A stretch of 64,000 nucleotides of DNA from Glaucostegus cemiculus (Eukaryota): NCBI GenBank assembly GCA_976551045.1, contig CDPCPM010000016.1, forward strand, positions 15,810,001 to 15,874,000, in the 5' to 3' direction. Below the pieces are notes generated by a model. It was not told the DNA's origin, ran no database searches, and worked only from the letters and a program-made list of their open reading frames with translations. Position 1 is the first letter of the stretch. Each line of letters starts with the position of its first letter. Both the position numbers and the translations under genes were made by a program. Positions 9,820 through 60,545 of the stretch are shown here, one piece after another.

Positions 9820-9945
9820 CAGGTACTTGAAATCTGAACAAAATAAAACCAAAATGCTGGAAACACTCAACTGATCAAGCAGCAACAGTGGAAAGAGAAA
9901 AAAAGTTAATGATTCAAGTGGAAAACTCTTCATCAGAACTATGGA
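9820..9945 (-). mobile_element. Penelope-like element terminal (pseudo-LTR) fragment with degenerate hammerhead motif
   Basis: Reverse complement agtt-CTGATGA-agagttttccactt-GAAT-catt-aact; the remainder matches other Penelope ends in the window. Confidence 0.7.
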
Positions 9946-10204
9946 ACAAATAGTTAAGATTGTATGACCTGAATGGGCAGATTCTTGGAAGTTTCATCAC
10001 ATGATCTGTTGCCACAATGGTTTTACCTGATGCACCTTACCTTCTAGACAAGTTAGAAGGTAAATAGACCCTGCATAACCTGATAGTATGTTTGCTGTCA
10101 GTTGACAGTGTTTCCTCCTATGTCCAATATTTATATAATTAAAGAAACTTGATCAGAAAGCATTTAAAGACAAGAGTGAAGCAAACAATTGTACATGCAA
10201 GAAA

Positions 10205-10830
10205 TATTACACAAAAGTAGAAAATACCAGAAATAAGCAGGTCAGGCAGCATATGTGAAAAGAGAACCAGTCAGTGTATGTGGTCAATCGCTCTTCCTCA
10301 GAACTGGAAAAGTGAGAAAATAAGAGCTTTTTAAGTTGCAGAGAATGTTGGATCTGGTTATTTTGGAATCCACAGGTTCTTTCAGGAGTCCAGGGATGAG
10401 TTGAAAACAACTTGATGTTTCAAAGTTTTATTGGAAAGGTTTAAAACAAAGAAACAGCCACACAGCACATGGCACTAGCTCTGATGAGCCGAGACAAAGG
10501 GAACAAAAGATGAGCTCAGGCCAGGGGACAGGAAGAAAAAGAAAGAGGCTGATTAACATAAAGCAACACCTTTTATACCTGAGATAAGGGATGCTCTTTA
10601 GCTAACAATAGTCCGATCAGGAAACCTGTTAGATACTTGTGGCCAAACCAACCAACGAAAAAAACCACAAATTCACCTGATGGACAAACCAATAAGCTAG
10701 TAGGCGGCCATTCCTTGTGCTGCCACTGGAGATGTATTAAATACTACACATGTTAAAAACTAATTAAAACAGTGGAATCCAACAAGAGGATGGAGAGAAC
10801 AAAGGTTTTATCATAGGTTGGGGACAAAGA
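10205..10830 (-). mobile_element. Penelope-like terminal fragment interrupted by a solo LTR
   Basis: AGCAGGTCAGGCAGCATATGTGAAAAGAG..CAGAACTGG matches 58260-58440, and the host sequence resumes after 10784. Confidence 0.65.
10346..10784 (-). mobile_element. Solo LTR (ERV or LTR retrotransposon), 439 bp
   Basis: TG...CA ends with a perfect 8-bp inverted repeat TGTTGGAT/ATCCAACA; flanks AGAGAA/AGAGGA (imperfect TSD). On the minus strand: TATAAAAG (10577-10570) then AATAAA (10432-10427); CCAAT at 10689-10693. Confidence 0.75.
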
Positions 10831-10839
10831 TTGTTGCCC

Positions 10840-12530
10840 TGTTAAGTTGCTGGAAATGTGAAACAAGACAGTATGCTGTAAGTATATACCCAGCAAAGCA
10901 GGCAGTGCCTGTGGAGAGAGAAAGATTATGTTTATAAGTGGATGACCTTGCATCAGAGTTGGCCTTCTCTGACACAGACAAAAGGTGAGAATCTGTTCCT
11001 TGTGCCTAGATTGGACAAATTTGGAATGGTGTCAGAGGCAAAAAGGTCAGAGTGGGAATGGGATGGAGATTAAAACTGTTGGAAATTAAGGGTCACCAAT
11101 GTGGACTGAATAGAGGTGTTCTGCAAAGCAGTCACCCAGTCTGAATTTGGTTTCTAAGGTGCAGAGTTCATCAGATCATGAGCACTGAATGTAATACACT
11201 ACTTTGGAAGAAATGCAAATGAATTGCTTTTTCACCTGGTATGACTGTTTGGATCCCTAGATGATAGAAATTGACAAAGAGAAAGTGTAGATGTTGCATG
11301 GGGAAGTAATATGAAAAGGGTTTGGGGGAGATGAAAGGTCTAACCTCTTTCTGAATGCTGGGAGGGGAGGGGAAGATGTGTCTGGTAATGGAATCCTAGT
11401 AAAGGTGATAGAAATCAAACTTAAGGGCAAAGGAAGACACTCAGGCGCTGGTGTGGACACTTCCCTTCCCTTTCTTAACATCACAGTGTCCTTGGGGAAT
11501 AGTTTAGTAATCAGTATCCATTAGAAGCCCACTGACCTCTACACCTATCTCAACTATACTTCCTCTCTTCTTATTGGCTTCCTATAAGAACTAAATTCCA
11601 GGTTCTTTGTTACATTTGTTCTGATGACCAGGCTTTCTATACCAGTGCCTCGGAGATGCCTACCCTTTTCCTTATCCCATTACCAAAGCTGACAGGGCTT
11701 TCAACCATATTTCTTCTATTTCTGGCATATTTGCTTCATGGCCCACTCCTTCGAGGTAGATCAAGCACAGGTTCCCCTTGTTCTTACATTCCAGCCTTCC
11801 ATATTGAATAAATCGTCCTCTTTAATTTTCACCACCTTCAAAAAGATTTCCATCTCTCATCTTCCCATCCCACCCCCTTTCAGTATTACAAAGTGGCCAT
11901 TACCTCTGTGATTTGCTCTTTGTTCTCCACTGACCACTACTCTTGTTATGTACTTTCCCATGCAACTGCAGGGGATGTGACACCTGCCTTTTTACCATGT
12001 TGCTTATCACTATCCAGGGACCCAAACAGTCCTTCCAAATGAAGCAGCGATTCACTCGCACCTTGTCCAATGTAATGTATTACTTTCAGTGTTCATGATG
12101 TAGTCTTCTTTACACTGGAGAAACCAAATGAAGATTGGCTAACTGCTTTGCAGAACACCTGTATTCAATCTGCACAGGTGACCCCAAATTTTAGCTGCCT
12201 ATCACTTTACTTCTCATTCCCATTCTCACTCTGAGCTCTCTATCTTTGACCAGCTGCACTGTCTCAATGATGGCCAAGGTAAGCTCAAGAAACAGCACCT
12301 CATCTTCTGTCTGGGCATGTTGCAGCCCTGAGAACTTGATGCTGAATTCAGCAATTCCAGCTAATCAGCTTTTTCTGTTTGTGTCAGAGCTGGCTGGCCC
12401 TGATATAAGGTCATCCACCGGCATCATTATTTTAGATTTTCTTTCTCCATAGATGTTGCCTGGTCTGCAAGGCATTTCCTACATTCTCCTTTGTTTCAGT
12501 TTCCCAACAATTTCTGTACTCTGCATCCAA
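10840..12530. mobile_element. Penelope-like retroelement with inverted structure (minus arm ~10840-11430, plus arm ~11450-12530)
   Basis: Plus arm remnants: DTSLPFLNITVS, KPTDLYTYLNYTSS (RT thumb) and FPCNCRGCDTC..QGPKQSFQMKQRFT..SNVMYYFQCS*CSLLYTGETK*RLANCFAEHL (GIY-YIG endonuclease with Cys linker). The same GIY-YIG segment occurs on the minus strand at ~11090-11305, and terminal sequences face outward at both ends. Confidence 0.85.
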
Positions 12531-12689
12531 CAGTTCCAACATTTTCATTTCTTTCTTTTCTCTTGAAATGCAGAGACTGAAAGTAATTGCTACCCGAACA
12601 ACCTTGGTCCACACTCTATCACAGGCATTCCCTCAGTTCTTGTCACCCATGCTTCCCTCTGAAACCTAAAACACACTTGTTTTTGCACT

Positions 12690-12780
12690 GTTCCAGGGTT
12701 ATTAACCTGAAACATTGACTTTCTCTCTCTCCACAGATACTGCCTGGCTTGCTGAGTATTTCTGGCATTTTCTGTAATTG
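12690..12780 (+). mobile_element. Penelope-like terminal fragment
   Basis: ACCTGAAACATTGACT..CTCTCCACAGATACTGCCTGGCTTGCTGAGTATTTCTGGCATTTTCTG. Confidence 0.7.
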
Positions 12781-13939
12781 TTGTATATATTTAAAAAAAG
12801 TATTTTACTTGTGCTTTTTCTCCTGCATAGTTCAGAACGTTGGATGGGAATTAATTAGCTTACAGTTCTGCATACAATTGTGAAGTTTGTCGACTCAGCA
12901 TCTAGTGCATAAGTAGCATAAACTGCTAACTGTGAATTTTCACAATCTTTGGAAGTGTAATAATGGTGGAAATACTGAAGATTTCATTGATTCAACTGAA
13001 TTTTTGTACAGCTGTGAAAGAAATAAAGGAATTCAATGGAATATGTAATAATAGAAAACCTTAGCCTGAGGAGATAAGGCATCTCATTTTTCAGAGATGT
13101 TTTGTTGCTAGTTCTTGAGAGATGATACTGTAGAACCTGAAAATAGAGTCAGTGACATGCCTAGCAGGGACAAAGAGGCATATGGTTTAAAAAAAAATTA
13201 CATTGTTAGTTGTTATCACCGCATCTCACAAGATTTGTAAGCAATGTGAGTAGTGCCAGCGAATGTCAAAGATATCAAAATTAGCTTGTAGCGTATCTTC
13301 AACAATGGACCGAGGAAAGGCTTAGTGTCATGTAATAAACTCCCTGCCTTATAACCAATCCAAGGATCTTCTGTTTAGTTCCTTGAGGCAGCGAACAGTT
13401 TGACCGCTCTAAGAATCAACTTTGGTTTGTGCAGGGGAGAACAAGCAGTTCATGACTGTGTTTTATACATAGATCTTTGCATGGTACGGTAGGAAGTATC
13501 TAATTAATTACTACCATTTTTACTTGGTCCTGTTGAGTCCATTTCAGTGCACTGTTTTTCTTCATCTTTGAACAATTTAGTATTTTTGTATTGTGCTGGA
13601 AATGTTGTTCATGTCACCTTACTTTTCAATATCATATTTTCAACATATCATATTTAAATGGAATAATATATTCAAAACAAGGCCATGTATTATTAATACT
13701 TTAACTTCCCTGTTGATGCAATGATTGTTACGTGTGTAGCAGTAGTATTTTAGGAAAGGTTCACCAGTTTACAGGATGGAATATGAATCTGTCTGCTGAA
13801 AACAAAGCCCAAAGTGATGGTGAAAGTGAGCAGATATCTTCCTTTGTACAAGGAAAGATCCACACGGGTTTTTCCTCTTGATTCCCAGTGACTTCAATTT
13901 TACTGGGGCTCTTTCATGCCAAACCTAATCAAATGTTAC

Positions 13940-14123
13940 CTGCAGAGGTTGTGGGGGCAGGTACATTAGGGACATTTAAGAGACGCTTAGATAGACATAT
14001 GAATGATAGAGAAATGGAGAGCTATGTGGGAGGGAAGGGTCAGATAGAGCTTAGAACAGGATAAATGTCGAGACCACATTGTAGGCCGAGGGGCCTGTAC
14101 TGTACTGTAGTGTTCTATGTTCT
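13940..14123 (+). mobile_element. CR1 LINE 3' end
   Basis: Near-identical to 38812-38990; tail TGTTCTATGTTCT. Confidence 0.9.
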
Positions 14124-15165
14124 GTGATTGAAGGTGCCACTGTGTGAAGATGGCATTTTGTCTCCACAGAGACTGTATTGTACTCAGTCCTATCACTACT
14201 ATCATGGACAGATAGCTGCTGTACATTGATAGGTCAGAATAAGGTCAAATATGGTTTGCTCTCATGCTGGTTCTTTCACTACCTGCCTTGGGCTCAGTCT
14301 GGCACCTTTTGCCTTTTGGATCTCAGATTTCAGGCAGCTTGTTCAGCAGATGTTCTATTGGATCACTTCTGGTGATGGACATCTTGTGCAGAGTCCATTC
14401 TTTGCCCTTCCTATCCTCAGACTGGTCTTTCAGTTTTGGCACAGGCTTTTGGTTTTGATGAGGAAGGCTTTGAAGATTGACTACATTTGGTTGTGTTTGT
14501 GATGCCTAGGTCCATAATAGCTGTGGCAGAAAAGAGATCAAAATCTACTCCTTTGCATAAACAAGATTTCCCTTATTGTGGCTGCTTACATTAAAAAAAT
14601 AAAGATTTGATGGCTTTGAAGCATGTAACATATGGAAGGAACTGATGCATGTAATAAAAGTAGGTGTATTAAATCTGTTGAATTTTAAATCTTGAAAATT
14701 TAGATGTGAGGAAAATAGTCATTGACTTAAAAATGTTTAACTGTACATATGTTGCTCAAAAGTATAAACATGAATATTTCACTTTAATATTTTTAAGTGA
14801 TAATTGCCCACTTGAAATTATTTCTCCAAATGTAGTTATTGCCCTGAGTTTGTTCTGGGTTTAATGCATATATTGACTTGAATGTACTTTAAAATTAGAA
14901 GAGTAGACTGATCCTCAGTAGAAATGTCTGTTTCTGGCAGGCAATCTGGACCAGTTAGCTTTCTGACACTCTACTGGGTATAAAATAAGGGAAGGGACAA
15001 GGGAGTAATGGTGCTGACATTCTGAGAGGGGTGACATGTCACTTTCCTGACCCTCCCATAGAGCCAGGAGTTAATATCATTGAAAAACTTATCAACTTGC
15101 TCCATCAATTTCAAGAGAGTAGACATCTGGCATTCTAACATTCCAGCTGATAATTAGGAACTCTA

Positions 15166-16812
15166 GTTAGAATCATAGAGCACTACAGTACAGAAACAGG
15201 CCCTTTGGCCCATCTAGTCCATGCCAACCTGATCTTCTGCCTAGTCCCATCGACCTGCATCAGGACCATATCCCTCCAAACCCCTCCCATCCATGTACCT
15301 ATCCACACCTCTCTTAAATGTTACAATTGAACCAGCATCTATCACTTCTGCTCACAGCTCATTTCACACTCGCACCACCCTCTGAGTGAAGGAGTTTCCC
15401 CTCAGATTCTCCTTAAATATTTCACCTTTCACCCTAAACCTATGACCTCTAGTTCTAGTCTCACCCAACCTTAGGGGAAAAAAGCCTGTATGCATTCACC
15501 CTATCTATACTCCTAATTATTTTGTATACCTCTATGAGAAATCCCCTCATTCTCCTGCACTCTAGGGAATAAGGTCCTAATCTATTCAGCCTTTCCACAT
15601 AACTCGGGTCCTTGAGTCCTGGCAATATCCGTGTAGATTTTCTCTGCACTGTTTCAAGCTTATTGCTATCTTTCCTGTAGGTAGACGACCAGAACTGCAC
15701 ACAATACTCCAAATTTGCCCTCACCAACGTCTTGAACAACTTCAACATAACATCCCAACTCCTGTACTCAATGCCCTGATTTACGAAGGTCAATGTGCCG
15801 AAAGCTCTCTGTAAGACCCTATCTACCTGCGATGCTACTTTCAAGGAATTATGGATCTGTATTCTCAGGTCCCTTTGTTCTACTGCACACCTCAGAGCCC
15901 TACCATTCACTGTGTAATTCTTACCCTGGTGTGTTCTTCCAAAGTTCAACACCTCACACTTGCTTGTATTAAATGCCATCTGCCATTTTTCAGCCCATTT
16001 TCTTAGCTGGTTAAGGTCACGCTGCAAGCTTTGATAAACTTGCTCGCTGTCCAAAGTCCCCAATCAATGTCATCTGCAAATTTGCCGATCCAGCTTACCA
16101 TATTATCATTGAAATCATTAATATAGATAATAAAGAACAATGGACCCAGCACTGATCCCTGTGGCACACCACTAGTCACAGGCCTCCAGTCGGAGAGAGG
16201 ACCATCTACTACCACTCTCTGGCTTCTTGCGCTAAGCCAATGTTGAATCCAGTTGGTTCCTTCAGCCAGAATGCCAAACCACTTAACCTTCTGGAGCAGC
16301 CTCACATGTGGGACTTTGTGAAAAGCCTTGCCTTTGTCCATGAAGAAAATGTCCACTGCCTTTCCTTCATCAACCTTCTTAGTAACCTCCTCAAAAAACC
16401 CTATAAGATTGGTTAGACATGACCTACCCACGCACAAAGCCAAGTTGACTATCCCTAATCAGGCCCTGTCTATCCAACTACTTATACATTGTGTCCCTTA
16501 GAATACCTTCCATTAATTTACCCACAACTGATGTCAGACTCACCAGCTTATTCTTAGCGCCTTCCTTGAACAATGGAACAACATTAGCTATCCTCCAGTC
16601 CTCCAGCACCTCACTTGTGGTTAAGGACGTTTTAAATATCTCTTCCAGGGCCCCTTCAATTTCTGCACTAGCCTCTTATGAAGTCCAAAGGGACACCTTG
16701 TCAAGCCCTGGGGATTTATCCACCTTAATTCAGCTCAAGATAGCCAGCACCTCCTCTTCTGTATTCTGGATACAGTCCATGACCTCATTACTCTTTTGCC
16801 TCAGTTCTATAG
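15166..16812 (-). mobile_element. CR1 LINE, 5'-truncated, frameshifted RT
   Basis: ORFs 16003-16443 ([33 protein letters not shown]) and 15461-16063 (WAEKWQMAFN..LEYCVQFWS); CR1 tail at the left end. Confidence 0.95.
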
Positions 16813-17401
16813 TAATGATCCAGCTGCAAAGTTCCTGGAAGTGGCCACATCCTCAAAGGAAGACTGCCTACAACATGCAAAATGTCAACAGTCTGGGTGG
16901 AAGTGAACACCTCCACATTTTTAATCATGGTAGTGAGATATGTTGACAACACTTCCAATATCTCACTGCTCGTGCAAATTATTTCCATAGCTGTGCCCCT
17001 GGGGGGGGAGGGGTAAGAAGATGATCAAATGTATTAAATCTCCCAGCTGATTGCTTTGTGTTTACTATATTTTTGTATCATCACCATTCCTGGGAGAACC
17101 ACAGTTGAGGCTAGGACTGTCATAGGGTCCCTCCAGTCTTTAACCTGTATTGTCCTCAATTTCTGCCTATAATGTTGAATGTCTATCCTCTTTAAATGTC
17201 CTGTGCTTTAATTGATCTTCTGCCTCCCTGCAGTAGTTACCAGAGTTCCTTCTTGGTAGCAGGACATGCATGGGGAAATAATCATCCACCTTTAATCACT
17301 CCCCAGTGAGGTAGCAGTCATACTGGAGGAGTGAATGAAATATAAAACTTGCCCTGTCTAAACACTGCCACTCAAACGAGACTGTGATAGTTATTCATAT
17401 T

Positions 17402-17687
17402 TAAGATATCCTTATTAGACACATGTACACTGAAGCACCTCTTTTATGTAGAGCATTCTGGGGGCAGCCCACAAGTGTCGTCACGCTTCCGGTGCCAACA
17501 TAGCAATGCCCATAACTTCCTAACCCATACGTCTTTGGAATGTGGGGGGAAACCGGAGCAGCTGCAGGAAACCCACGCAGACACGTACAAGAACATACAA
17601 ACTCCTTACAGACTATGGCCAGAATTGAACCCGGGTCACTGGCACTGTAATAGCGTTACGCTAACCATTACACTACCGTGCCTGCCC
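17402..17687 (-). mobile_element. V-SINE with a non-CR1 (Rex1-like) tail
   Basis: Reverse complement head GGGCAGGCACGGTAGTGTAATGGTTAGCG..GACCCGGGTTCAATTCTGG (boxes A and B), V-domain, tail GTACATGTGTCTAATAAGGATATCTT. Confidence 0.85.
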
Positions 17688-18908
17688 TATTCAGGTGATA
17701 CTAATAATAGAAATATGACAGACATTATATGATTTTCATGTGCAGTAATTTTTCTACCATATATTATCTCGTTGATTAGTTTTTATTTTGATGGTGTACT
17801 TCCATGGAGGACGTACATGTTTCACACTCTTCACTCCGTTTTTTTGCTCCCATGTTTTAAACCAGCTGCACAATCTGCAGATTCAGAGCTGCCTCCCAGA
17901 AAATACTTGGTTCTCAAGTTAAAATTCAATTGTAATTAAGGACAGGAGCCGTGGAACAAACTGGGGTAACCTATTCACTTGTGAAATGAAAGCTAGAATG
18001 CACTGCTGATCAAACATTGACTGCTGTGCATTAGAAGTTAATATGTACTATATTATTAGAATAGAGATACAGTGGGCAAAGATAAACACTCTTACGTTCA
18101 TTTACTTTGGAAGGAGTTCAGTGGTTATTACTTGATAATTGCACAGAGCTATTCTTTCTTCATTGTAACCAGCATAGGTTCTAGCATAACAATTAATCAC
18201 ATAATAAGAATCGAAACTGATGCCATAAAGGTTAATATACCCAGATAATGGTAATGAACATGACTTGGTTTAGGTAGACTTTGAAAGCAACCAGTCTTGA
18301 TTCACACTGAAAGAGGAACCGAAATCAACTGTGAATTCTCACAAATACTCTTCTGTGCTCTTGTCAACAAGGTGCACATTCTGATGACCAAGTAGCTGTA
18401 CAAAGTGGTTGCAAGGATGTGCAATTCTTTACGCTTTTCATGGGGGATAAGTGTCAATAATACAGCACTCCTGAATCATTCACAGAGACTTTTGGGGGTG
18501 TTTCCTAAATTCTAATTTGTCTAGTCCATTCTGGAAGGTTTGGATGTTCCAAGTGACTGACTTTAAATGTTAAACTGAAATAGAATACAGACTATATCAT
18601 GTGGAACTGATACTCTGATATACATCCATACGATGCAATGAAGAGAAAAAACTAAAACATGCTCAAAATGAGCCTTATAAAACCATTTTAGAGAATTAAA
18701 TAAAATCAGAGTTGCCTCTGTCACCAGCATCATTGGGTAGTGAATTGCATGCTATATTGCTTTGGGATGTCAGATATGGACTTCAATTATAGATAGCAGA
18801 AGAGATACAAGATGAAAATATAATTACACTGATGATATTGTTTGCATGAAATCTCTTTCTTAGGGAGACTCTCAAGATTGGGGATGACTGAATGACTGAC
18901 TTTCCCTG

Positions 18909-18945
18909 AGTTCTGATGAAGGGTCTTTGATCTGAAATGTTACAC
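18909..18945 (+). ncRNA. Minimal type I hammerhead-ribozyme-like motif in a Penelope terminal fragment (~18905-19000)
   Basis: agtt-CTGATGA-a-GGGTC-ttt-GATCT-GAAA-tg-tt. Catalytic core boxes are intact and stem II is fully pairable with G:U; the 3' strand of stem I is damaged. Confidence 0.6.
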
Positions 18946-19004
18946 GTCTTTCTGCAGATGTTGCCTGATTCACTGAATGCTTCTGGCAATTTTTGTCTTT
19001 CTTA

Positions 19005-20000
19005 TATCCTCTCCAGTTTTGTAGGTTCTGATACGGCTAATGAGGCCTATGTGGGAACTACAAGGTCTTCCACAGATAAAGCAGGTGGTAAGTGAATAAT
19101 ATGGGCATGTCGTGTTCTGCTCCTTATGCCACGTATGTAGACCCTCTGGATGCTCCCAGTGCACAGCCTCCAGTTTCTCAGTACCCAATGAATGTTGCTC
19201 TATCACTTCGATAGTTATAGGCCAGAGTTACCCAGGAGCAGGTTGTATTTCTTCCAGATAGCTTTGGGCACATTCCTGAATCCATTCCACTGGTAATATC
19301 TTCCCATGAAAGAGCTTGGACTGAAGTATGTGTTTCTGGAACTGGTGTCAGGCCTGTGAACACAGGGCCTGCCCAACATTGCTGACTCAGTGTGACTAGG
19401 GCCTGGGAGAGGAAGCTGCCACTGCCTTTTTCACCTTTCTAGTGAATTTGCAGACACAACATTAGTGGTATATTTCCAGTGCTACGAGATGTCTGCTGCC
19501 GGTAGTCCAGGTCTGAAGCATGTGAGAGGGCCATGATCACTGCTGCCCTCCTACATGAATTTCGTGCCAAATCTGAGATCTTGATCTTCAAGTACCCTCT
19601 TCCTCAATCAATCAAAGACTTTTCTGGCTCATTGTATGTGATGGGGAATTTCTTCATTGTTGTCCACCTTCACCAGAAAATGACTCCTGAGATATGGGAG
19701 TTCAGACCCTGTTTTCCAGGGTCTCATTTTGTGAACCTTTATTGTCAATGGGCAGCTTGATGCAGCAAGGGTGGGCTTGTAGCAATCCTTTGTGTGGGGA
19801 ATGTTGAGTGTAAGGCCCATCCTATTCTATGCTTCAGTGAAGGCATCAGTGGTGTCTTGGAGCACAGCCTCCAAACATACACAAAAGTAATTGTTGTCTC
19901 CACCCTTCAGCATGACTGCAGGAAATGCTATGTGCTTTACATAATTTTTCCAAGTTTATCCTCTAACTCACTGAGAAACTGCGAATGGCTTGTGCAACTT
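19005..20000 (-). mobile_element. RTE-clade (BovB-like) LINE, degraded
   Basis: C-terminal zinc knuckle TTCFICGRPCSSHIGLISRIRTYK (ORF 18970-19206) and MGLTLNIPHTK after the RT catalytic region. Confidence 0.8.
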
Positions 20001-22230: not shown

Positions 22231-22254
22231 AGGCCCCAGGAAATAATGGTATAA
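22231..22254 (+). CDS. Candidate 24-nt frame-preserving microexon of the EVA1C-like gene
   Basis: Branch point CCCTGAC (22203-22209), pyrimidine tract cttgtttcattttgcAG and donor GTGAGT at 22255. Phase 1-1 like the upstream exon; encodes (E)APGNNGI. Confidence 0.35.
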   Translation, partial: RPQEIMV

Positions 22255-25890: not shown

Positions 25891-26951
25891 TTTCAATTCC
25901 TGTTTGATTAGTAGCGCAGGAAGAGAATCACAAGTTAGCTTTAAGGTGCGATTAATATGTAGTGAATCACTGGACTTGAAGGTGAACTGTAGGCCATGGA
26001 AGAAGTTCATTGGAGGGTGTGATTGCACACAAGTTCTGCTCCTGAGGAATGGGATAAAAGTAACAATGAGACAGCCCATAGAAGAAAACTGATGACCAGG
26101 CTTGCAAGATTACAAGGTCATTGTCTAGTCCTTTTAAAAGCCAAGTGTAATGACAAGGAGCATGGCAGAGTTCAACTCCAACCTTGTTTGGAGCTTGGAG
26201 CCAATCCTTTCCATCATGGAAGTGGCATCCAGTTCCATGTCAACACAGGTAGTCCCAACCATCGTATGGTATCTCATGGCTAATATCTATGTCATTGTTG
26301 CAGCACAAGCCAAGCTCACCACATTCTTCAAGTAGTGCTATGGAGGCTCAGACAGGATCCATAACAGCCGTCATCATCATCAGTGCTGAAGAGGACTCTG
26401 AGCATGTTGCATTAACCCAATAATCTATACTCAGCCTATTACTAGAATTACTAAAGTTGCTGAAACTGCCTTGAGGTGTCAATGGATTACAGACTATGCC
26501 GTCCTCTCTCAGGATGTCATCAGATGCCTTCCAATGAATGCACTTGCTATTGCCAGTCTGCTAGTTAGCAAAAACTTCTGCCACTTATGGCAAGAGGGTT
26601 CAGTTGGACTTCAAACATTCTAAAGGCTTCCAGTGACTTGTTCTTGGGGCATCCTTCATACTAACCACCGATGCCTCTATTTACACTCAGAAACCTTCCA
26701 TCGCCATGTAGGACCACTAAAATGCAATGCATAGGAATATGAGAGACACGGGAGATTGCAGATGCTGGAATATGGAGCAAAATAAAACCAGTGAGCTGGA
26801 GGAACTCAAGAGGTCAGGCAGCATTTGTGGCGGCAAAGGAGTAGTTAATATTTCTACCTGCTCATCAACCCTTCCTCACCAGGATCCATCTATCACCTGC
26901 CAGCCCCTACCCGCCCCTCCATCTCTTTATACTGACTACCTCCCCTTTAAA

Positions 26952-28952
26952 ACCAGGGATGTTTTACAGGATGTTGGGGACAGATATGTTCCGGCAAGAC
27001 GGAGGAAGAATGGAATAGTGAAGGAACCGTGGGTGACAAGAGAGGTAGAAAGACTGGTTAGGAGGAAGAAGGAGGCTTACGTAAGGTGTAAGCGGCAAGG
27101 CTCTGATGTGGCCCGTGAGGAGTATAGTATAGTGAGAAGGGAACTTAAGAAAGAGCTGAGGAGAGCTAGAAGGGGACATGAAAAGATGTTGGCTCGTAGG
27201 GTTAAGGAAAATCCCAAGGCTTTTTTCTCTTATGTGAAGGGCAGAAGGATGACTAGGGTAAAGGTAGGGCCTATTAAGGACAAAGGTGGGAGGATGTGCC
27301 TGGAGGCGGCAGAGGTAGGGGAGGTACTTAATGAATACTTCTCCTCTGTATTCACCAAGGAGAGGGGCCTTGATGATGTGACGGTGAGTGCTGACAAGGG
27401 TAATATTCTTGAGTATGTAGCTATAGAGAGGGAGGAGGTGATGAAATTGTTAAGTAGTATCAAGACTGATAAGTCTCCGGGGCCCGATGGAATATTCCCC
27501 AGGCTGCTTCGGGAGGCGAGGGAGGAGATTGTTGATCCGCTGGTGAGGATCTTTGAGTCCTCGTTGTCCACGGGGATGGTGCCGGAGGATTGGCGAGTAG
27601 CGGATATTGTTCCCTTGTTTAAGAAGGGCAGTAGAGATAGTCCGGGAAATTACAGACCGGTGAGCCTCACGTCTGTGGTAGGTAAGCTGTTGGAAAGGAT
27701 TTTGAGGGACAGGATCTATGAGCACTTGGAGAGTCATGGACTGATTAGGGACAGTCAGCATGGCTTTGTGAAGGGAAGATCTTGCCTCACGAGCCTGATA
27801 GAGTTCTTTGAGGAGGTGACGAGGAAGCTTGATGAGGGCAGGGCGGTGGATGTAGTGTATATGGATTTTAGTAAGGCGTTCGATAAGGTTCCTCATGGCA
27901 GGCTTCTTCAGAAGGTCAGAGGTCGAGGTATCCAGTGGAGGTTGGCTGTGTGGATAAGAAATTGGCTTTCCTGTAGAAGGCAGAGGGTTATGGTGGAGGG
28001 AGTGCCCTCGGATTGGAAGGCTGTGACTAGTGGAGTCCCGCAGGGATCGGTTCTGGGGCCTCTACTCTTTGTTATATTCATAGATGATTTGGATGAAGGA
28101 GTGGAGGGATGGGTTGGTAAGTTTGCAGATGACACCAAGATCGGTGGTGTGGTAGATAGTGTGGAGGACTGTAGGAGCTTACAGGGGGATATTGATAGGA
28201 TGCAGAAATGGGCTGATAGGTGGCAGATGGAGTTTAATCCGGAGAAGTGTGAGGTGGTGCACTTTGGGAGGACAAACTCCAGGACAGAGTATAAGGTAAA
28301 TGGTAAGGTTCTTGGCAGTGTAGAGGAGCAGAGGGATCTGGGGGTTCATATCCACAGTTCGCTCAAAGTTGCCTCACAGGTGGATAGGGCTGTTAAGAAG
28401 GCTTATGGGATGTTGGCTTTTATAAATAAAGGGATTGAGTTCAAGAGCAGAGAGGTGATGATGCTGCTTTACAAAACTCTAGTTAGGCCGCACTTGGAAT
28501 ATTGTGTTCAGTTTTGGTCGCCGCATTATAGGAAGGATGTGGAGGCGTTGGAGAGGGTGCAGAGGCGTTTTACCAGGATGATGCCTGGATTGGAGGGTAT
28601 GGAATATAAAGAGAGGCTTAAGGTGTTAGGGCTCTACTCATTAGAGAGGAGGAGGATGAGAGGGGACTTGATAGAGGTGTTTAAGATATTGAGAGGAATA
28701 GATAGAGTTAATAGTCAGCGCCTCTTTCCCAGAGCGCAGATGCTCAAGACGAGAGGGCATGCCTTTAAGATAATTGGTGAAAAGTATAGGGGAGACGTCA
28801 GAGGGAAGTTTTTCACCCAGAGAGTGGTTGGTGCATGGAATGCACTGCCTGGGGTGGTAGTGGAGGTAGATACGTTGGACAGGTTTAAGAGATTGTTAGA
28901 TAAGCACATGGAAGAATGTGGAATAGTAGGATATGAGGGTGGAAAGAGTTAG
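26952..28952 (+). CDS. CR1 ORF2 partial (reverse transcriptase, no APE endonuclease), 666 aa open
   Basis: [72 protein letters not shown]; no stops or frameshifts. Confidence 0.95.
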   Translation, partial: TRDVLQDVGDRYVPARRRKNGIVKEPWVTREVERLVRRKKEAYVRCKRQGSDVAREEYSIVRRELKKELRRARRGHEKMLARRVKENPKAFFSYVKGRRMTRVKVGPIKDKGGRMCLEAAEVGEVLNEYFSSVFTKERGLDDVTVSADKGNILEYVAIEREEVMKLLSSIKTDKSPGPDGIFPRLLREAREEIVDPLVRIFESSLSTGMVPEDWRVADIVPLFKKGSRDSPGNYRPVSLTSVVGKLLERILRDRIYEHLESHGLIRDSQHGFVKGRSCLTSLIEFFEEVTRKLDEGRAVDVVYMDFSKAFDKVPHGRLLQKVRGRGIQWRLAVWIRNWLSCRRQRVMVEGVPSDWKAVTSGVPQGSVLGPLLFVIFIDDLDEGVEGWVGKFADDTKIGGVVDSVEDCRSLQGDIDRMQKWADRWQMEFNPEKCEVVHFGRTNSRTEYKVNGKVLGSVEEQRDLGVHIHSSLKVASQVDRAVKKAYGMLAFINKGIEFKSREVMMLLYKTLVRPHLEYCVQFWSPHYRKDVEALERVQRRFTRMMPGLEGMEYKERLKVLGLYSLERRRMRGDLIEVFKILRGIDRVNSQRLFPRAQMLKTRGHAFKIIGEKYRGDVRGKFFTQRVVGAWNALPGVVVEVDTLDRFKRLLDKHMEECGIVGYEGGKS

Positions 28953-29043: not shown

Positions 29044-29440
29044 TTTAAACTCTCAGTCCAGATGCAGGGTCTTGACCTGAAATGTTGACTATTCCTTTGC
29101 CTCCATAGATGCTGTTTGATCAACTGAGCTCCTCCAGCAGCTTGTTTTTTTATTATTGGAACATTGGTCATGTTTCGGCATAATGGGATTCAGTGCCTGA
29201 GGGAATGTACAAGAAGTTGATGTATCTACTTTGTTTTTTCTCTTTGATTAATGGAACTATAAAAATGTTGTTGTGTGCAAAAAGGTTTTGGATGAAGGGA
29301 CAATGATGACGAAACACAGAGAGGGAGGAAAATGGGAAATGCATTTCATATGGTAGTTTAATGAATATTCTATCTTTGAAACAGAGCCATGCTAATCAGA
29401 GCCACGGCCTGGAATAATGCTGAGGCAAAGAAATTCAAAA

Positions 29441-43412: not shown

Positions 43413-45839
43413 TGTCCAAGGGAAAATATTAGAAGGTATTATTAAAGTTAAAGAAGGACAGTTGGAAAATTCAAGGTGATTTGGCCAAGGCAGCATGGTT
43501 TTGGACAATTTATAGGACATGAAGTAACATTTGCCTCAGATAAAGGGGAAATGGTGGATGTACTGTATTTAAATTTACAGAAGCCTGTTTATAAGGTGCC
43601 ATGTCAAAGATATTTGCAGAAAATAAAATCCCTCTGTAGGAGACAACATATTGATGTGGATAAAAGATTGGCTGGCTAACAGAAAACAGAGAGTAGGTGT
43701 AAGTGGGTCTTTTTCTGGTTGGCAAGCTGTAATGAGCGGTGTGCCATAGGGATCAGTGCTGGAATCTGAATTTTTTACAATGTATATAAATGACTTGGAT
43801 GAATGCACTGAAGGCATGGTTTCTAAAAGGCTGGTGTGCAGGAACAGCAAGTTATTATAAAAGTGAACAGAACGTTATGTTTTATTGTTTGGGGAATTGA
43901 TAATAAAAGTAGGGAGGTTATACTTCAGTTACCTAGGGCAATGATGGAACCACATCTGGAGGACTGTGTACAGTATTGATTTCCTTAATTAAGAAAGAAT
44001 GTGGATGTGTTGAAAGCAGTTCAGAAACGGTTTCCTAGACTAGTACCTGGAATGGGTGAGTTGTCGTACAAGGAAAGGTTGGATAGGCTAGACTTTATCT
44101 TGTGGAGTTTAGAAGAGTAATAGGTGACTTGATTAAAGCAAATACTATTCTGTGGGGACTTGACAAGATGGACATGGAGAGGATGTTTCCTCAAGTAGAA
44201 CCTAAAACCAGCAATAACTGTATAAAATAAGGGGTTGCCTATTTAAGACAGATGAAACTTTTTTTTTCTGTCAGAGGGTTATGAATCTTTGCATCTCTCT
44301 TCCTCAAAAATAGTCATAGATTTTGCTTCCACCACTCTAGGTAAGCAAGGGGGTGAAAAGTTACCACAGAGATGTGAGGTTAAGAGTCGAGGTTGTAATC
44401 AGGACAGCCGTGATCTTAGTGGAACAGACTTGAGGGGCTGAGTGGTCAATTCCTGTTCCTAATTCATGTTTTCATATGTGCAAAGCACATGTTTAAAAAA
44501 AGTGCACAAATATGTCCAAATTTCTAGGCAAATCTGTTGAAAGAGAAATTCTGATATAATTTGATTTGTAATTTTTTGCAAGGTTCATTTGTGAAGGTGG
44601 GAGAAGAATCCATTTGCCAAACCTGTCATTTCCTGATCCCTTATTTTTTCAGCCCATTTATCTCTTCATTGATCTAATATTTCACATTCCAATCAAACTG
44701 AAATATTTCTTTAGACTTTTTTCTTGTCATCTATGGTGCATCCACTACTCATTAACTCCTCAAAGATTTTAGTTGTTCTCAACTGATTCTAGTCCTTAGA
44801 ACCATGATTCTTTCCGGATTGCATTGGGTAAAAGAGGTCTGTGATATATTAATAAAAATGCCCATAGTTATATCCAGACTTTGAACTAACAAACAAATGA
44901 TGATGATATTGAAAAACACCATTATTGAAGATTCAAAGTATGTGTATTTCTGCCATCTTTGATAATCCATCATAACCACCAGTTCTACAGACAAGAATTT
45001 CTAGTTATAAATTTGTAGTGACAGGGACATTTATCTTCAATAAAATTGACAGAGAAACTAACTTTGCTAGAGTGCTTGAAATGATGAGGGTAGGTAATTG
45101 TGGAGGTATAGGGATGATTCAATTAATTCTTTCTAGTGGGAATGGAATCTTATTTACCACAAATCCATAAAAAATAATCTATCCTTTCATGAATTAAAAC
45201 CACGTCAGGACTACAGTACTGTTTGGTTGGAGGGGGTGGGGGGTGTCTGTGTATATCATTGAGATCAGTGTGGATTTGGCTGTGAAGTGTTCCTGGTTGG
45301 ATGAAATCGCTTTCTGAAACTCAATGACAAAATTCAAAGACTGACTCCTCAATTGAGTGAAGAGCAGTGCCAAACCTTTCAAAAAGTTTCAAAGCACAAT
45401 TCAGCAGCTTCATGATAAAAAGAGAGAAAATCAATGGTGAAGTTGAAATCTGTGTCTACTGTGTCATATCAGGACCTTCTGAGGTTAATTGCTCAGTCAA
45501 AATTATTTCACTGTCGAAGTATAATCAATACCGGAGGTTTGACAAGGTGGACCAGCAAAAGACCAAAAGACACATTTTAGGCACTTTTACCGTATAGGAG
45601 TGCAGCTGGCTGCACACATGCGTGTCTCCACTGTAAATCATTCAAAGGAGAGTGAACTAATCACCAATAAACTCATGAAAATGTGTCCTGAAAATATATT
45701 GTGCAATGGAGCCTAAGAAACAGTTCCTTGGGATTGAAGATGGTTTGATTTCTTTCCAGAGAATTTTGAGGTTACAGATGAGAACAATATGGGAAATGCA
45801 GATTCTTCCACAGACAAGCAGCAGATGCCCGAACAAGGT

Positions 45840-52055: not shown

Positions 52056-52109
52056 AATTAGTAGGAGTAATCTATAATAGAATGTCTAATGTTATTTTAT
52101 GGCTTATAA

Positions 52110-52605
52110 CTTTGAACTCCTCAGTATTGACTGTTCCCCAACTTGTCGTCATCCATAAATTTAGAAATTGCATTATTGATTCCAGATTCTAAATTATAAA
52201 AGCAGTAGTCTCAGTGCTGATCCCTGTAGAATAACATGAACCACCTTGTTCCGCTGTTAATAGCTACTCTTTAAGCCCACTCTCTGCTTCTATCTTGAAG
52301 TCAGGTAGCAATCTGTTCTGCTATATGTTCCCTGACTTTGCATTTTTGACTTCATTCATTAACCTGTTTTAGGGTAGCTTATTGAAGGCTTTTTGAAAAT
52401 TCAGATAATGCAGCAGATGTAATTTATCAGTATCTGCACTCTGAGGTGCCTTTTAAAAAGGAACAGTGTTGCCTGACCAACCTTATAATCATTTTGAAAT
52501 CCATGCTGACTATTCATTATTATCTTACCCTTAATAAAAATCCTTTGCTTTGTAATGGGAATTTAATTATTTTTCCTGTCACTGTTATTAAGCTGACTGG
52601 TCACA
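52110..52605 (-). mobile_element. Old CR1 RT fragment
   Basis: Minus strand PVSLI, QHGF, NFQKAFNK and QGSALR remnants. Confidence 0.7.
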
Positions 52606-54649: not shown

Positions 54650-54972
54650 GTTATGCTCCCCTCTCCCATCGGGCAGAAGATACAAAAGCCTGAAAGCATG
54701 TATTACCAGGCTCAAGGGCATCTTCTATCCCACTGTTATAACACTATTGAACGGTCCCCTAGTAGTTAAGATGGACTCTTGACCTCATAATCTACCTTGT
54801 TATGACCTTGCACCTTATTTGTCTACCTGCACTGCATTTTCTCCACATGGTTTTATCTTGTACTACTTCAACACACTGTTGTAATGAATTGATCTGTATG
54901 AATGGTATGCAAGACAAGTTTATCCTCTGTACCTCGATATATGTGACAAATAATAAACCAACTTACCAATTT
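54650..54972 (+). mobile_element. Rex1/Babar LINE family A 3' end
   Basis: LPSGRRYKSLKA..TRLKGIFYPTVI; 3' end GTGACAAATAATAAACCAACTTACCAAT; inverse of 1650-1990. Confidence 0.9.
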
Positions 54973-55907
54973 AGCCAGTAAAATGAAAGTGGTAGAACAA
55001 CTCTAAACAACACTCGATAAAGTGATAATTGATATTGAGCTGCATTTTAATAAATGATCCCAAATGAAAAATATAAAAGAAACATTAGTTGCATTTCATT
55101 CTTGTATGATTGTTTTCAGTTAGTATGCGACATCAGGGAAGCATCCAAAAAATGAAAATGTTTGAAAGCTTTAACTGTTTTAAATATTTAAAATTCAGTA
55201 GCTTTTGCTCAATGTATCTATTTTCTACACTGTTATATGATGTAAGTGTTGTGGTATGTGATGTGACACATTTCTTAGAATGTAAGTCTTTATGCGACCT
55301 CCTTTGTTCTATTAACCAATGTGTTTGCAAAGTAAGCAGTAATTCTACTGAACTCACTGGTCCATGGAGGCCCTTGTTCCAAAGTGTACAGTACAGATCA
55401 TCAGTCTATCTATAAATCGCCTTTTTATGATAGCCTGAATAATGGAATAGATTTGTTTGCTTTGCAGAACTAATCACCTTCCAGCCTTTTAAAATCAAGT
55501 TGCAAGAATGGTGGATTTCAAGCAAGCTACAATACTCATAAAAATACAGAAGGGAATAGAATGGTCAAATAGATGAAAAATGAATTATAATGCTGAAATA
55601 ATATTGCTGTTAGGAAATGATAATAAGTAGCTGAATGTAGTTAGGGTATTGTGTGTATTTCTCTAGCCACTACATTTGCAATCTCAGTCATCTCATTGGG
55701 CAATTTACCACAGAAAGGGGGAGAAATTTTTGAGGGAGATTCCTGATGAGCTTCTTGGCAGCATTGCTAAATTACTGATGTCATTCTAGCTGGAGGAATC
55801 AGGCAAGCAAGGATTGCCCTCTTTGGAACAAAAAGCTACTCCCAGCAGAAAAGACTGGTACAATAAGCTGCCAGCAGAACAGTAACAATTCAACATGGTT
55901 GATTACA

Positions 55908-56173
55908 TGAAAGGTAAAAAGTCTGATGCTGGAGGAACTCAGCAGGCTAGGCAGCATCCGTGGAGAAAAGCAGGTGGTCAACATTTTGGGTCAGGACCCT
56001 TCAGGACTGAAGATGGGAAAAGGGGAAGCCCAATATTTTCGGTCCTGAAGAACAGCCCTGACCCGAAATGTTGAGTGCCTGCTTTTCTCCATGGATCCTG
56101 CCTGGCCCGCTGAGTTCCTCCAGCATCATCGTGTTTTTCATCTAGATTCCAGCATCTGCAGTCCTTTGTTTCT
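55908..56173. mobile_element. 266-bp non-coding fold-back Penelope-derived element with 14-bp TSD
   Basis: CATGGTTGATTACA at 55894-55907 and 56174-56187; ~80-bp inverted arms at 55924-56002 and ~56047-56128; a hammerhead-like motif in each arm. Confidence 0.9.
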
Positions 56174-57639
56174 CATGGTTGATTACACACAGAACAGTGA
56201 GAGCCATGGTCTTAATTGGCCTATTTTGGACTAGACTATGATTTGTTGCATGTGGTTGCTGGAGCTAGGGAGTAAAAAGGATATTCATTAATATGGTTTT
56301 GCAATCTTTGGGAATTAAATATTGTTCATTTACACTTTTTGAAGTTTGCTTAATAAACACCGGGCAAAATGGTGTGACAAATTTCTACTGGTTCTATGAA
56401 CGTTAGGAGCATTTTCTGAGTTCAGGATTGAAAGGAATCTTGGTAGTGTCCCTCCACTCCCTAACTTGTCAATCGCATTTACTTAATTATCTTGTCATCT
56501 GTGAATGATACTTATTAGTTTAACTGCAGCTATTTTGAGCTCAATGAGAACCACCTGGGTATTCTTTCCTTTTCAGACTATGTCAGGAAACAGAAGCCCA
56601 ATTAAAACTGAATACTCTAGTTCATAAATATGGAAGATATTTAAGAGGATATAGCTGACCTTGAATATTTCTGTATCTTTCTTTGCCTCACTAGCTGCTT
56701 TTCTTGCTTTAGAAAAAGACATTTGTCATTGCTAAAAGATTGTGAGAATTGTTTACTTGAGGAAAAAAATTGGGAAAGCTACTGTGCAACAATTGAGTTA
56801 ATTTTTGATGGACTGGCTGTTAGCCCAACTATACAACCATTTGGTGCATAATTTTATCAGTTAATTGGTGTGTATTTATAACTTTCTTTAACTCTTGGGA
56901 GGGTTGGCAGACACAGGAAAAGTTCAGACTTCCTGAGTTGGTCATTGAAAGAAAAGAGACAATTTTAGCAAAATGCTTATAAAGCAAAACTGAATATTAC
57001 AGTAACAAAGTTTCTTAATTATCAGCAACTGAATTACTATAATAATAAAATAATTTACATAGGATTAAAAGAAATAAAATTAAGAATCCCTACTAAAATG
57101 CCCTTTTTAACCTCACTTTGTTCCCCCCACCTCTTGTAGTTTAATAAACCTTTACATTTTATTTCAATGCCACACAATCTTCTATTTTTAATTTTTTTCA
57201 TTGAAGTTCAATGATTTTAACTGGGCTGCAATCACTTAGTTGACAGATTATGCAACATTCCTGGTGTAAACCCAAGTGGAATATTGGTGCCTTTAGGCAC
57301 TGTTTCCACTGAAGTAATAATTAAAGGATTTATAGTCACAATGTTGTTGACAATGTCAGGCATCGACTTGTGAGGGAGTGGAATATTTCTGAAATCCAAG
57401 CTGTTAATCTTAAGGATAGAAGTCCACTTATTTGTCATTGATATCTATATTTTGCCAGGAGCAAATATTAATATTCATTATTGTTTAATGAGATGTTCAA
57501 TCTCCATAACAAACATCGAGATTCAAGGCATGATCTTTCTGATGGTTGGCTGATTTTCAGCCTGTCAAAACGTGGCAATGCTAGACTTCTTTATTAACAA
57601 GGCAAAAGGGAGTGTTAGAGTTAAGTTTAACAACAAAGC

Positions 57640-57770
57640 ACATAAAAGAACGCAGGAAAATAGAAGCAGGAATAGGCCTCTTTGTCCCTCGAGCTTGCCC
57701 CACCATTCAATATGATCGTGGCTGATCTATGCTGGCTTCAACTGCTCTTTGATACCTGTTCTCAATTCCC
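57640..57770 (-). mobile_element. CR1 3' terminal fragment
   Basis: ATAGAAGCAGGAATAGGCC..CCCTCGAGCTTGCCCCACCATTCAATATGATCGTGGCTGATCT; similar to 42406. Confidence 0.75.
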
Positions 57771-57989
57771 CAAAAGAGCAAAGAGTGATGGCAAAAGACT
57801 TTACTGAACCAGCTATTCACAACTGCTTCATGGCAAGTTCATGCCATTACCAATAACGGTGCTATTTAAAGGTAATAGTACATGGAACCAGATCTGTTAC
57901 TTTGCCCATGCTCATTCAGTTAATCATCAGTTAAAGCTTTCTGTGATTAATTCAGTAATTTTAGATAATGAGGAGTATCATCTCTCATC

Positions 57990-60545
57990 TATTAAAACAG
58001 AGAATACTGGAAGTATCAGCAGGTAAAGCAGCTTTTATAGATAGAGAAACAGTAAACTTTTCAGATCAATGACCCTATATAAGAATGATTAAGTTTCTGA
58101 GAACCTGATGATTTTTGCATTAGAACTGGTCAGTTCTGATACAAACGGGAAAGGTTGATTACCTGAAATATTTAATTTACTAGCCTGAAGGCTGTAACAT
58201 GCCGAGGCAGAAGATGAAATGTTAGATCTAAAGAACTGCAGACACTGGCAATCTGGAATAAAAACAGAAAATGCTGGAAAAACTCAGCAGGTCAGGCAGA
58301 TTCTGTGGAAAGAGAAACAGTTAATGTTTCCAGTCAAAGACTCTTCATTGGAACTAAGAAAGAGAGAAAACAAGTTTGTTTAAATAGCAGAGGAGGTAGG
58401 GAAGGGCAATGAGTGGAACAAAGGGAATGTCTGTAATAGAGTGAAATGACATAGTCATTAAATGGACAGTTAAAGTCTTTTGTCTGACTAATGTGTTGTT
58501 AATGTTGTAAAGTCGGGGTGATTTGTATGGTCTGGCTGACTGGGACATGCCCAGCAGACCAGAATAAACAAATGGAAGATAAAAAAGGAACAGAGGAAGT
58601 GCAAGTAAAAGTGGCCAGTCCTAATACAGACAGAAGGATAGTTATATGAAGTTGGAGAATTCAATACCGAGTCTCGCAGATTGCAATGTCCCCAGATAAA
58701 AAATGACGTTTTGTTCCTCATGAGAAGAGTAGCCAATGTTGTTCCTTTGTTTAAGAAGGGCAATATGGATAATCCAGGAAATTATAGGCTGGTGAGCCTT
58801 ATATCAGTGGTAGGGAAGCTATTGGAGAGAATTATTAAGGACAGGATTTACTCTCATTTGGATGAGTATGACCTGGTTAGGGACAGTCAGCATGGCTTTG
58901 TGCAGGGTAGGTCACATATAACAAACTTGATTGAGCTTTTTGAGGAGATAATAAAGATGATTGAGGGTAGGGCAGTGGATGTTGTCAACATGGACTCTAA
59001 TAAGGCACTTGACAAGGTGTCTCATGGTAGGCTGATCCAGAAGAAAAAGTTGCATGGGATCCATGGTGACTTGGTAGTTTGGATTCAAAATTGACTTGAC
59101 CACAGAAAATAGAGGGTAGTGGTGGAAAGGTGTTATTTCTGACTGGAGGTCTGTGAGCAGTGGTGTTCCACAGGGATCAGTACTGGGACCTCTGTTGTTT
59201 GTGATATGGGCAGATTAGTATGTCTTCAAACAACACAAACATTGGTGGAATTGTGGATAATGAAGGTGGTCGTCAAATGATACAGTAGTACATAGATAGT
59301 TACAGATATGGGCAGAGAAATGGCAGATGGAGTTTAATCCAGGCAACTGTGAGGTGCTGCTCTTTGAGAGGGGAAAGCACACAGTAAATGTCCCAAGGAC
59401 ACTTGGGACCACTGATGTAGAGGGATCTGGGGGTGCAAGTCCATAGCTCATGAAAGTGTCAACACATATAGGTATATTGCATGCTTGCCTTCATCGGTCA
59501 GGGCATTGAGAACAAGAATCAGGAAGTCGTGTTGTAGCCATATAAAACTTTGGTTAGGCTACATTTGGAGTATTTTGTGCAGTTCTGGTGGCCCCATTTG
59601 CAGGAAGGGTGTGGAGGCTTTGGAGAGGGTGTAGAAAAGGTTCACCAGGATGCTGCCTGGATTATAGAGTATTAGCTATAAGGAGAGGTTGAACAAACTA
59701 GGATTGTCTTTTCTGGAACAACAGAAGCTGAGGGTCACCTCTGATGTAGGTTTATAAAATTATGAGAGGCATAGACAGGGCAGATAGTCTTTTTCCCAGG
59801 GTGGAAATGTCAAATACTAGATGGCATAGCTTTAAGACGAGAAGGGAAAAGTTTAATGGAGATGTGTGGGCTAAGATTTTTTTCCCACACGTGGAATGTG
59901 CGGCCAGAGGTGATGGTGGAACATGCAGAGAATGGAGGGATGTGGACCATTTGCAGGCAGAAAGTTTTAGTTTTATTTGACATCATGGTCGACACAGACT
60001 TTGTGGGCTGAAGGATCTGGTGCTCTGTTGTACTGTTCTATGTTCCTTCAGCTTATGTTGGGCCTCATTGTATCAGTACAGGAGGCCACAGACAGAAAGG
60101 TAAGAGTGTGATAGTGAATTAAAATGGAAGGCAACTGGAAGCTGAGGGTCAAGATTGAGCTCCTGTGAAATGAGTCCGAAGTGATCACACATTCTGCGTT
60201 TAGTGTCTCCGGTGCAGATGCGATCACATTGCGAACACAGAATGTAGTACACTGGGTTGGAGAAAGTACAAGTGAATCACTCTCTTACCTGGAACGAATG
60301 CCCGAGTCTAAGAATAGTGAGAAGGGAAGAAGTGAAAGGATGGATATTGCACCTCCTGTGGTAGCATTGGAAAGTGCCATATGACAGGGAATAGTAGGTG
60401 GAGACAGAAGAGCAGACCAAGGAGATGTGAAAAAGCAATCCCTTAGAAATGCTGAAAGATGTGATGCTGTTCCTCAAGCTTACAGTACGTTGGGCTTCAT
60501 TAGAACACTATAAAAGGCCAATGATAGCAAGGTCAGAGTGGAGAA
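57990..60545 (-). mobile_element. Penelope-like element cluster (termini and GIY-YIG remnants) split by a CR1
   Basis: Termini at 57990-58090 and 58222-58360. GIY-YIG remnant on the minus strand at 60170-60300 (FQVRE*FTCTFSNPVYYILCSQCDRICTGDTKRRMCDHFG). Confidence 0.8.
58719..60047 (+). mobile_element. CR1 LINE, degraded
   Basis: ORF 58681-59094 RVANVVPLFKKG..NYRLVSL..QHGFVQGRS; TGTTCCT duplicated at 58712-58718 and 60041-60047. Confidence 0.95.

Follow-up and report, generated by a model that had tools for sequence, protein, structure and literature searches.

The dispersed motifs analysed here lie in a stretch of 64,000 nucleotides (nt) of the 2.85 Gb genome of Glaucostegus cemiculus (contig CDPCPM010000016.1, positions 15,810,001 to 15,874,000, hereafter the window). 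With high probability, a Penelope-like retrotransposon present in very many copies left them behind as its mutated ends, each endowed with the known minimal type I hammerhead fold, a ribozyme that is likely to have cleaved itself as a dimer in the active ancestors of the element and that is predicted to be dead in the window. This class of motifs is already known at the ends of Penelope-like elements (PLEs), and the window copies are ordinary broken leftovers of it. The lead that goes beyond the known class comes from short copies, which begin at the first bases of the motif and not at the predicted cut site; this suggests that element RNA likely starts there and was copied uncut. The described ribozyme class is extended to a cartilaginous-fish-like genome, at a very high copy number. 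Thousands of intact copies, distributed among several subfamilies, make up a collection of natural variants that could be assayed. From the ends of the copies comes a testable prediction of where element RNA starts and of whether RNA that has been cut ever serves as a template. PMC8557442 and PMC11167929 leave the function of PLE hammerheads undecided.

Searching the genome for an intact core associated with stem II and the ACGT palindrome returned 2,274 matches, against 0 for the control. The intact copies are laid out as stem I, CUGANGA, an extra A, stem II with a loop of 2 or 3 nt, GAA, ACGU, H17 and stem I again. The minimum-energy fold holds both stems at loci L023, L028 and L265, not at L016, and the minimal type I architecture with a palindromic ACGU stem III that a sequence-only reading of the window had put forward is upheld. 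We also considered a motif-blind sample of 143 copies, picked by their tail or protein from 219 tail hits (76 had no parsable scaffold). The core, understood as CUGANGA, GAA, A15.1-U16.1 and H17 not G, is complete in 35 of these; the extra A between 9 and 10.1 is found in 94%, and positions 15.2-16.2 read CG in 34, TG in 36 and CA in 49.

In helix I, which has 4-5 base pairs (bp), and helix II, there are two pairs in which both partners change, and they do so where subfamilies split; the remaining stem pairs mostly vary on one side. Genome-wide, pair 2.1/1.1 is C-G in 7,306 matches, U-A in 2,331, U-G in 756 and C-A in 329 (controls 0; odds ratio 68), and the motif-blind copies with U at H17 divide in the same order of the two Watson-Crick pairs, with C-G 50, U-A 27, C-A 7 and U-G 6 (p 4e-11). 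Pair 10.1/11.1 is G-C in 24, G-U in 12, A-U in 9 and otherwise in 2 of 47 copies, a covariation score that 0 of 500 shuffles reach; G10.1-C11.1 is kept in the young families and is replaced by G-U or A-U in the old subfamily. There, positions 11.1-12 read TG in 25 of 30 copies while the ACGT site is split (CA 15, TG 9, CG 3, TA 3), and U11.1 should therefore be seen as ancestral, not as a product of CpG decay. Pairing was probably selected in master elements, with two compensatory changes between subfamilies.

Several features weigh against too strong a view of this pairing. Because the paired changes follow subfamily splits, and because loop length tracks pair 2.1, covariation rests on few events in master lineages. 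Alignment A1 was chosen by hammerhead patterns, and its shuffle control ignores relatedness. Young families carry mismatches in stem I (A-C at 2.4/1.4 in 42 of 143 copies, G-A in L016), and when the full tail is attached to sequences that begin 4 nt ahead of the core, the predicted probability of stem I is at most 0.23 in 11 of 12 rows (L091 and L253 being one locus). The stem I covariation noticed earlier in the window must be qualified likewise: the variants are as described, but the switch between U-A and C-G is a marker of subfamilies, so that the window copies do not count as independent events. Ancestral self-cleavage is likely, as judged from the structure and from assays on other species.

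The source element is recognized by what lies upstream of the motif. An intact-core match at L023 is preceded by a GIY-YIG frame, and Pfam identified GIY-YIG (E 3e-4 and, at L023, 0.0075) and RVT_1 (E 0.018) in element frames, all under the curated cut-offs. With the L023 GIY-YIG frame as a query, the genome gave 35,733 first-look candidates; among 30 returned loci picked by their nuclease, 22 have a hammerhead on the same strand 266-510 nt downstream (mostly 380-510). Locus L062 displays a 476-amino-acid frame with reverse transcriptase (RT) motifs, a CX4CxxC linker and GIY-YIG, and the linker together with a C-C-H-H nuclease pattern, common to Neptune and Nematis, recurs in L063 and L201. 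The latter is a partial tandem, with a unit of 3.1 kb, in which a nuclease remnant, hammerhead and tail are followed by an N-terminus, RT, nuclease, and again hammerhead and tail; it is the one among 20 extended loci with the motif in both pseudo-long terminal repeats (pseudo-LTRs), and both of its hammerheads are damaged. No intact full-length open reading frame (ORF) was seen among the element loci examined. The element ORF has 238 homologues, among them proteins with PF00078 and PF01541; the best, from sharks and rays, are at 57-70%. The window itself has three nuclease remnants, at 11092-11250(-), 11955-12182(+) and 60049-60378(-), and one RT remnant, at 11456-11806(+), and these run on into the copies at 10945, 12400 and 58319; with L201, they support the Penelope origin proposed from the sequence.

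The architecture of the copies goes the same way. A partial tandem, inverted 5'-truncated copies and a tail are all present, as in PLEs with an endonuclease (EN+); there are two alternative 3' ends, copies stopping about 60 or 95 nt past the predicted cut site, like a PLE tail; and head-to-head pairs, such as 55905-56176, are common. Tails number 106 in 704 kb, i.e. about 150 per Mb, or roughly 0.4 million genome-wide, in a sample that was position-picked from five contigs and not random; many of these copies are merely 100-150 nt long.

A covariance model built on 50 genomic copies outside the window, as the sequence-only reading had proposed, recovers its six main copies with 25-40 bits and E-values from 3e-9 to 5.5e-5, their first stem I bases being 18909+, 29055+, 56041+, 56008-, 9940- and 58355-, where they had been placed. 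The next matches are 10280-10307 (E 0.0015) and 12695-12716 (E 0.01), among 27 matches at E<=5, the E-values being rough. Rfam gave no hammerhead family match in the window at E<=5. A profile of the 3' tail, made from 60 genomic copies with the hammerhead left out of the model, detects 12 copies in the window and 0 in reversed sequence, and in 440 kb taken from elsewhere in the genome it detects 63. It retrieves all 11 copies noted earlier, including the decayed ones, and adds a twelfth at 26741-26878(-).

If cut RNA were copied, 5' ends should gather at the base after H17. Out of 394 family A tails without the GAAA register, 70 were examined, of which 18 were internal deletions; the 5' ends of the 52 left are not enriched at the cut site, being spread evenly over 11 positions (p 0.88), and the five that fall on the site itself all belong to inverted pairs. 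A companion test upstream of the core, in family A only and on 70 of 694 matches, gave a different picture: in 61 of the 70 copies, the match to the element extends upstream of C2.1 by just 0-4 nt, and from -5 to -12 it is at background (0.20-0.33). A uniform model of 5' ends is rejected with p 7e-8 at 8% divergence, 4e-5 at 12% and 0.047 at 20%, and by hand arithmetic the ends per base before the core are about five times those around the cut site. Since short copies begin at the first bases of the motif, not at the predicted cut site, it is suggested that element RNA likely starts there and is copied uncut. In 15 of 17 pattern-matching copies of family A, a TATA-like box stands 31 nt upstream of the A in TCAGTC; by their resemblance to the consensus, we take these motifs to be a putative TATA box and Initiator. 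When family A RNA starts at AGUC the predicted probability of stem I is 0.89; with 12 upstream bases it is 0.00 in three of five copies (L007, L022, L030), falls only to 0.74 in L023, and L004 is without stem I anyway. Folding revealed no such switch by upstream bases in family B or in the old subfamily.

These observations can be assembled in a scenario with a likely part and a more speculative extension. In the likely part, two hammerheads would pair through ACGU, forming stem III, and be cut after H17, and element RNA would start at the first bases of stem I. Reverse transcription would begin at the tail, some 100-130 nt downstream, and run off at the uncut 5' end, which would generate the many short copies made of hammerhead plus tail, and the head-to-head pairs. 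The extension, which we consider less probable than not, would make the hammerhead the first 38 nt or so of a capped RNA driven by TATA and Initiator motifs, cleavage removing a capped leader of 32 nt. In read-through copies of the young family the ribozyme would be turned off by a hairpin in which UCUUCAG, upstream, pairs with CUGAAGA, so that it would be on only at the 5' end of an RNA. Hundreds of thousands of short copies could then be seen as run-off complementary DNAs recording the start site, in the manner of retroviral strong-stop DNA. Three points count against this scenario: the pile-up of 5' ends is weak at the highest divergence considered and comes from family A only; the putative start site at stem I is drawn from motif spacing; and the promoter of Drosophila Penelope is TATA-less and further upstream (PMC2377424).

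The lack of a cut-site footprint among the 52 short copies would also be expected if the fold had been kept as a protein-binding or priming structure, or through overlapping promoter or splice signals, and seldom or never cleaved in this lineage. The stem I mismatches of successful young families are consistent with this idea, as are two published systems: ribozyme mutants of the anole element insert normally, with no reads ending at the cut site (PMC11167929), and Naiad PLEs thrive without hammerheads (PMC8557442). We nevertheless hold it unlikely, for stems and loops differ among the subfamily patterns, yet all of these keep CUGANGA, GAA, A15.1-U16.1, a non-G H17 (142 of the 143 motif-blind copies) and the ACGU palindrome, and related motifs cleave in vitro (PMC4209133, PMC11167929).

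A start of the RNA at stem I is not the only way in which 5' ends may come to lie just before the core. The ends might derive from spliced RNA, the polypyrimidine-CAG of stem I acting as a 3' splice site as in Penelope of D. virilis, the intron of which ends at helix I (PMC4209133), or from stalling of RT at stem I. An AG does occur at stem I 2.4/2.3 after a pyrimidine tract in 93 of 143 copies, and GTAA at the ORF stop resembles a donor site. Yet genomic copies with the ORF end spliced directly to the hammerhead number 0 (for the one junction pattern searched), the sequence upstream of short copies is host DNA in 33 of 70 and inverted element in another 33, with no shared exon noticed, and the TATA spacing of 31 nt in 15 of 17 copies also speaks against it; we give this origin of the ends about one chance in five. 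The short copies could finally form a non-autonomous family of short interspersed elements (SINEs) or retrozymes with a master gene of its own, considering their density and length, and the tandem retrozymes described in one chondrichthyan (2026 preprint, bioRxiv 10.64898/2026.07.22.740005). This is very improbable: they match the pseudo-LTRs of copies bearing RT and EN, with the same subfamily variants, many are arms of inverted pairs, and in the window, to which the search for arrays was confined, no units are arranged in tandem.

Every copy in the window is predicted from its sequence to be dead as a ribozyme, and the earlier statement that each has at least one lesion is borne out copy by copy. 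Within the window, the core is kept only by 18909 and 56041. The first belongs to an intronic, sense copy of the old subfamily (18904-19005, +) with 13 of 13 core bases and a stem II of 5 pairs, two of them G-U, with loop AUGU; its stem I retains 1 of 5 pairs after a short deletion, its palindrome is lost and its predicted fold is not a hammerhead. The second (56034-56176, +) is a family A copy, hence of a young family, beginning at stem I and with a full tail, in which the core is intact and stem II broken. It forms a head-to-head pair with another family A copy (55905-56038, -), the hammerhead of which, 55976, has a 3-nt core deletion and has lost G12 by CpG decay. The old-subfamily hammerhead at 9904-9940, with its tail (9816-9946, -), has stems I and II of 4 bp each, with CUGAUGA and GAA intact, A15.1 changed to U and the palindrome lost. 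The copy at 29050-29153 (+) starts at stem I and has 4 of 5 and 5 of 5 pairs in its stems, with U4 and A9 mutated in the core. A whole 3' pseudo-LTR extends over 58226-58719 (-), with ORF end (58641-58719), spacer, hammerhead (58319-58355; U4 and G5 mutated, mismatch at 10.1/11.1) and tail; the GIY-YIG remnant of the same element (60049-60378, -) has been split off by a fragment of a CR1 long interspersed element (LINE) at about 58710-59980 (+).

The remaining window copies are truncated or further decayed. Two 5'-truncated elements are inverted partners: 10846-11250 (-) contains the GIY-YIG remnant at 11092-11250, a decayed hammerhead around 10925-10960 and a tail, and 11456-12509 (+) contains the RT remnant, GIY-YIG (11955-12182), an ORF end (12283-12366), a decayed hammerhead around 12396-12430 and a tail. 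A decayed copy at 10185-10350 (-) has its stem I start at 10305 and has lost the GAA box; a pseudo-LTR piece at 12612-12776 (+) keeps the 3' half of a hammerhead (12695-12716) and the tail; another decayed copy, 57993-58217 (-), comprises an ORF end (about 58131-58217), the 3' half of a hammerhead (58055-58076) and a tail; and at 26741-26878 (-) the tail profile marks a clear tail with a truncated and disrupted hammerhead. At 10938-10983(-), 12373-12418(+) and 58131-58217(-) we noticed what looks like a subfamily with only about 45 nt from ORF stop to hammerhead, where an upstream arm is complementary to stem I and the start of the core; a search of all loci for the upstream hairpin of window copies 10945, 12400 and 58150, as a possible subfamily trait, gave a single loose match.

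Directly following GAAA, copies 18909, 29055, 56041 and 55976 read TG and copies 12700 and 58319 read CA; copy 9904 has GAAT, then CA. Genomic copies outside the window retain CG, in agreement with the earlier view that TG and CA are products of CpG decay in a palindromic ACGT. After insertion, copies would decay neutrally, and fastest at CpGs, i.e. at C11.1-G12 in young families and at ACGT. Core positions are 82-90% conserved, tail positions 81-95% and G12 66%; comparison of core with tail identity gives no sign of selection on the core after insertion, the core decaying like neutral flanks.

The host gene is marked in the window by an exon at 4340-4483 (+) encoding the second half of a SUEL lectin domain (Pfam PF02140, E 1.6e-10) and bounded by splice sites; the same gene, all on the + strand, has a SUEL exon at window -66019 and a membrane exon at window +100053. 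From the order of its domains we presume that it is EVA1C-like. As its SUEL exon is on the + strand, + is the sense strand, and copy 18909 is sense to the host pre-mRNA, as had been said, with the best core, though with the stem I described above. The hint that this copy could matter to the host is not supported: stem I is broken, preservation is no better in the core than in the tail, and no preferred orientation was seen among the copies inside the gene. The complete core, orientation and intronic place of 18909 might suggest that it, or some other copy in an intron, cuts host pre-mRNA as an active or co-opted ribozyme; this is extremely unlikely, given the stem I, palindrome and predicted fold of 18909, the whole core in 9 of 59 position-picked copies, with 0 fully intact, and 11 sense against 12 antisense copies across the gene (n=23). 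The copies in the window are relics, and nothing about them indicates a function for the host.

Other features were noted in the host gene. An exon candidate at 19025-19087, beside 18909, was set aside, as its opposite strand resembles the C-terminal zinc finger of an RTE LINE, although Pfam gave nothing. On that strand, at 18970-19230(-), a frame ends in a Cys/His pattern like that of the RTE C-terminus; it is its opposite strand that scores as the false exon. At 45758-45837(+) there may be a small in-phase EVA1C-like exon, with good splice sites and no Pfam hit. Pfam revealed no host exon in 32 long unmasked window frames, and a homologue search with one upstream frame found nothing.

Side observations on the element and its surroundings are also worth recording. 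L027 (about 1490-1570) has a direct tandem of two hammerheads separated by about 40 nt; in the first, core and palindrome are intact, which makes the tandem a candidate natural dimer. L271-L273 (C10, about 21.54-21.80 Mb) are identical over at least 70 nt upstream of the motif, pointing to segmental or tandem duplication. The pseudo-LTR of family A (e.g. L201:4490-4520, 7530-7620) has a pyrimidine-rich spacer in which CTTACCTG-type words are strong antisense splice-donor matches, twice within about 100 nt. ORF homologues P0002, P0005 and P0073 are public ray or skate host gene models that hold pieces of the Penelope ORF as 'isoforms', either annotation artefacts or exonization. The window also holds, at 26721-28952(+), a CR1-type LINE with a 743-amino-acid open frame covering RT; its family is young, because a near-identical copy is found in L208.

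No publication describing PLE hammerheads in sharks, or placing a start site at the ribozyme, was found in the literature covered, which omits most subscription journals and Repbase/Dfam. The closest known systems are the minimal hammerhead ribozymes in the pseudo-LTRs of metazoan PLEs, among which fish Xena, Poseidon and Neptune (Cervera and De la Pena, 2014, PMC4209133). The type I layout with a helix I of 4-5 bp, the extra unpaired base between 9 and 10.1, the palindromic 15.2-16.2 without a real helix III, the location in both pseudo-LTRs, the thousands of solo copies, the opposite-strand pairs and the families with compensatory changes are all shared. The present case differs by its host lineage, a stem II of 4-5 bp, a far higher copy number (about 0.4 million tails) and an old subfamily with G-U or A-U at the usually conserved G10.1-C11.1; the main text of that paper does not mention shark, skate, chondrichthyan, cartilaginous or Callorhinchus, and its supplements may list such species. 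With Poseidon_Ac (PAc) of the green anole (Frangieh et al., 2024, PMC11167929) the element shares the pseudo-LTR hammerhead, a tail defined by two 3' ends that lie some 60 and 95 nt beyond the cut site and, probably, insertion from uncut RNA, the main insertion substrate of PAc. PAc belongs to the Penelope/Poseidon clade and its ORF starts inside the ribozyme, whereas the present element has a CX4CxxC linker and an ORF that apparently starts about 110 nt after the ribozyme (L201). Non-LTR retrozymes (PMC7229834; bioRxiv 10.64898/2026.07.22.740005) likewise have type I dimer-type hammerheads derived from PLE pseudo-LTRs, but they are tandem arrays of non-coding monomers, unlike the dispersed or inverted ends in the window. 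With the Neptune and Nematis PLEs, where EN is C-terminal (Craig et al., 2021, PMC8557442), the element has in common RT, a CX2-5CxxC linker, GIY-YIG with CCHH, partial tandem and inverted 5'-truncated structures, and a tail; by its linker and nuclease pattern, which both clades share, it would fit either Neptune or Nematis.

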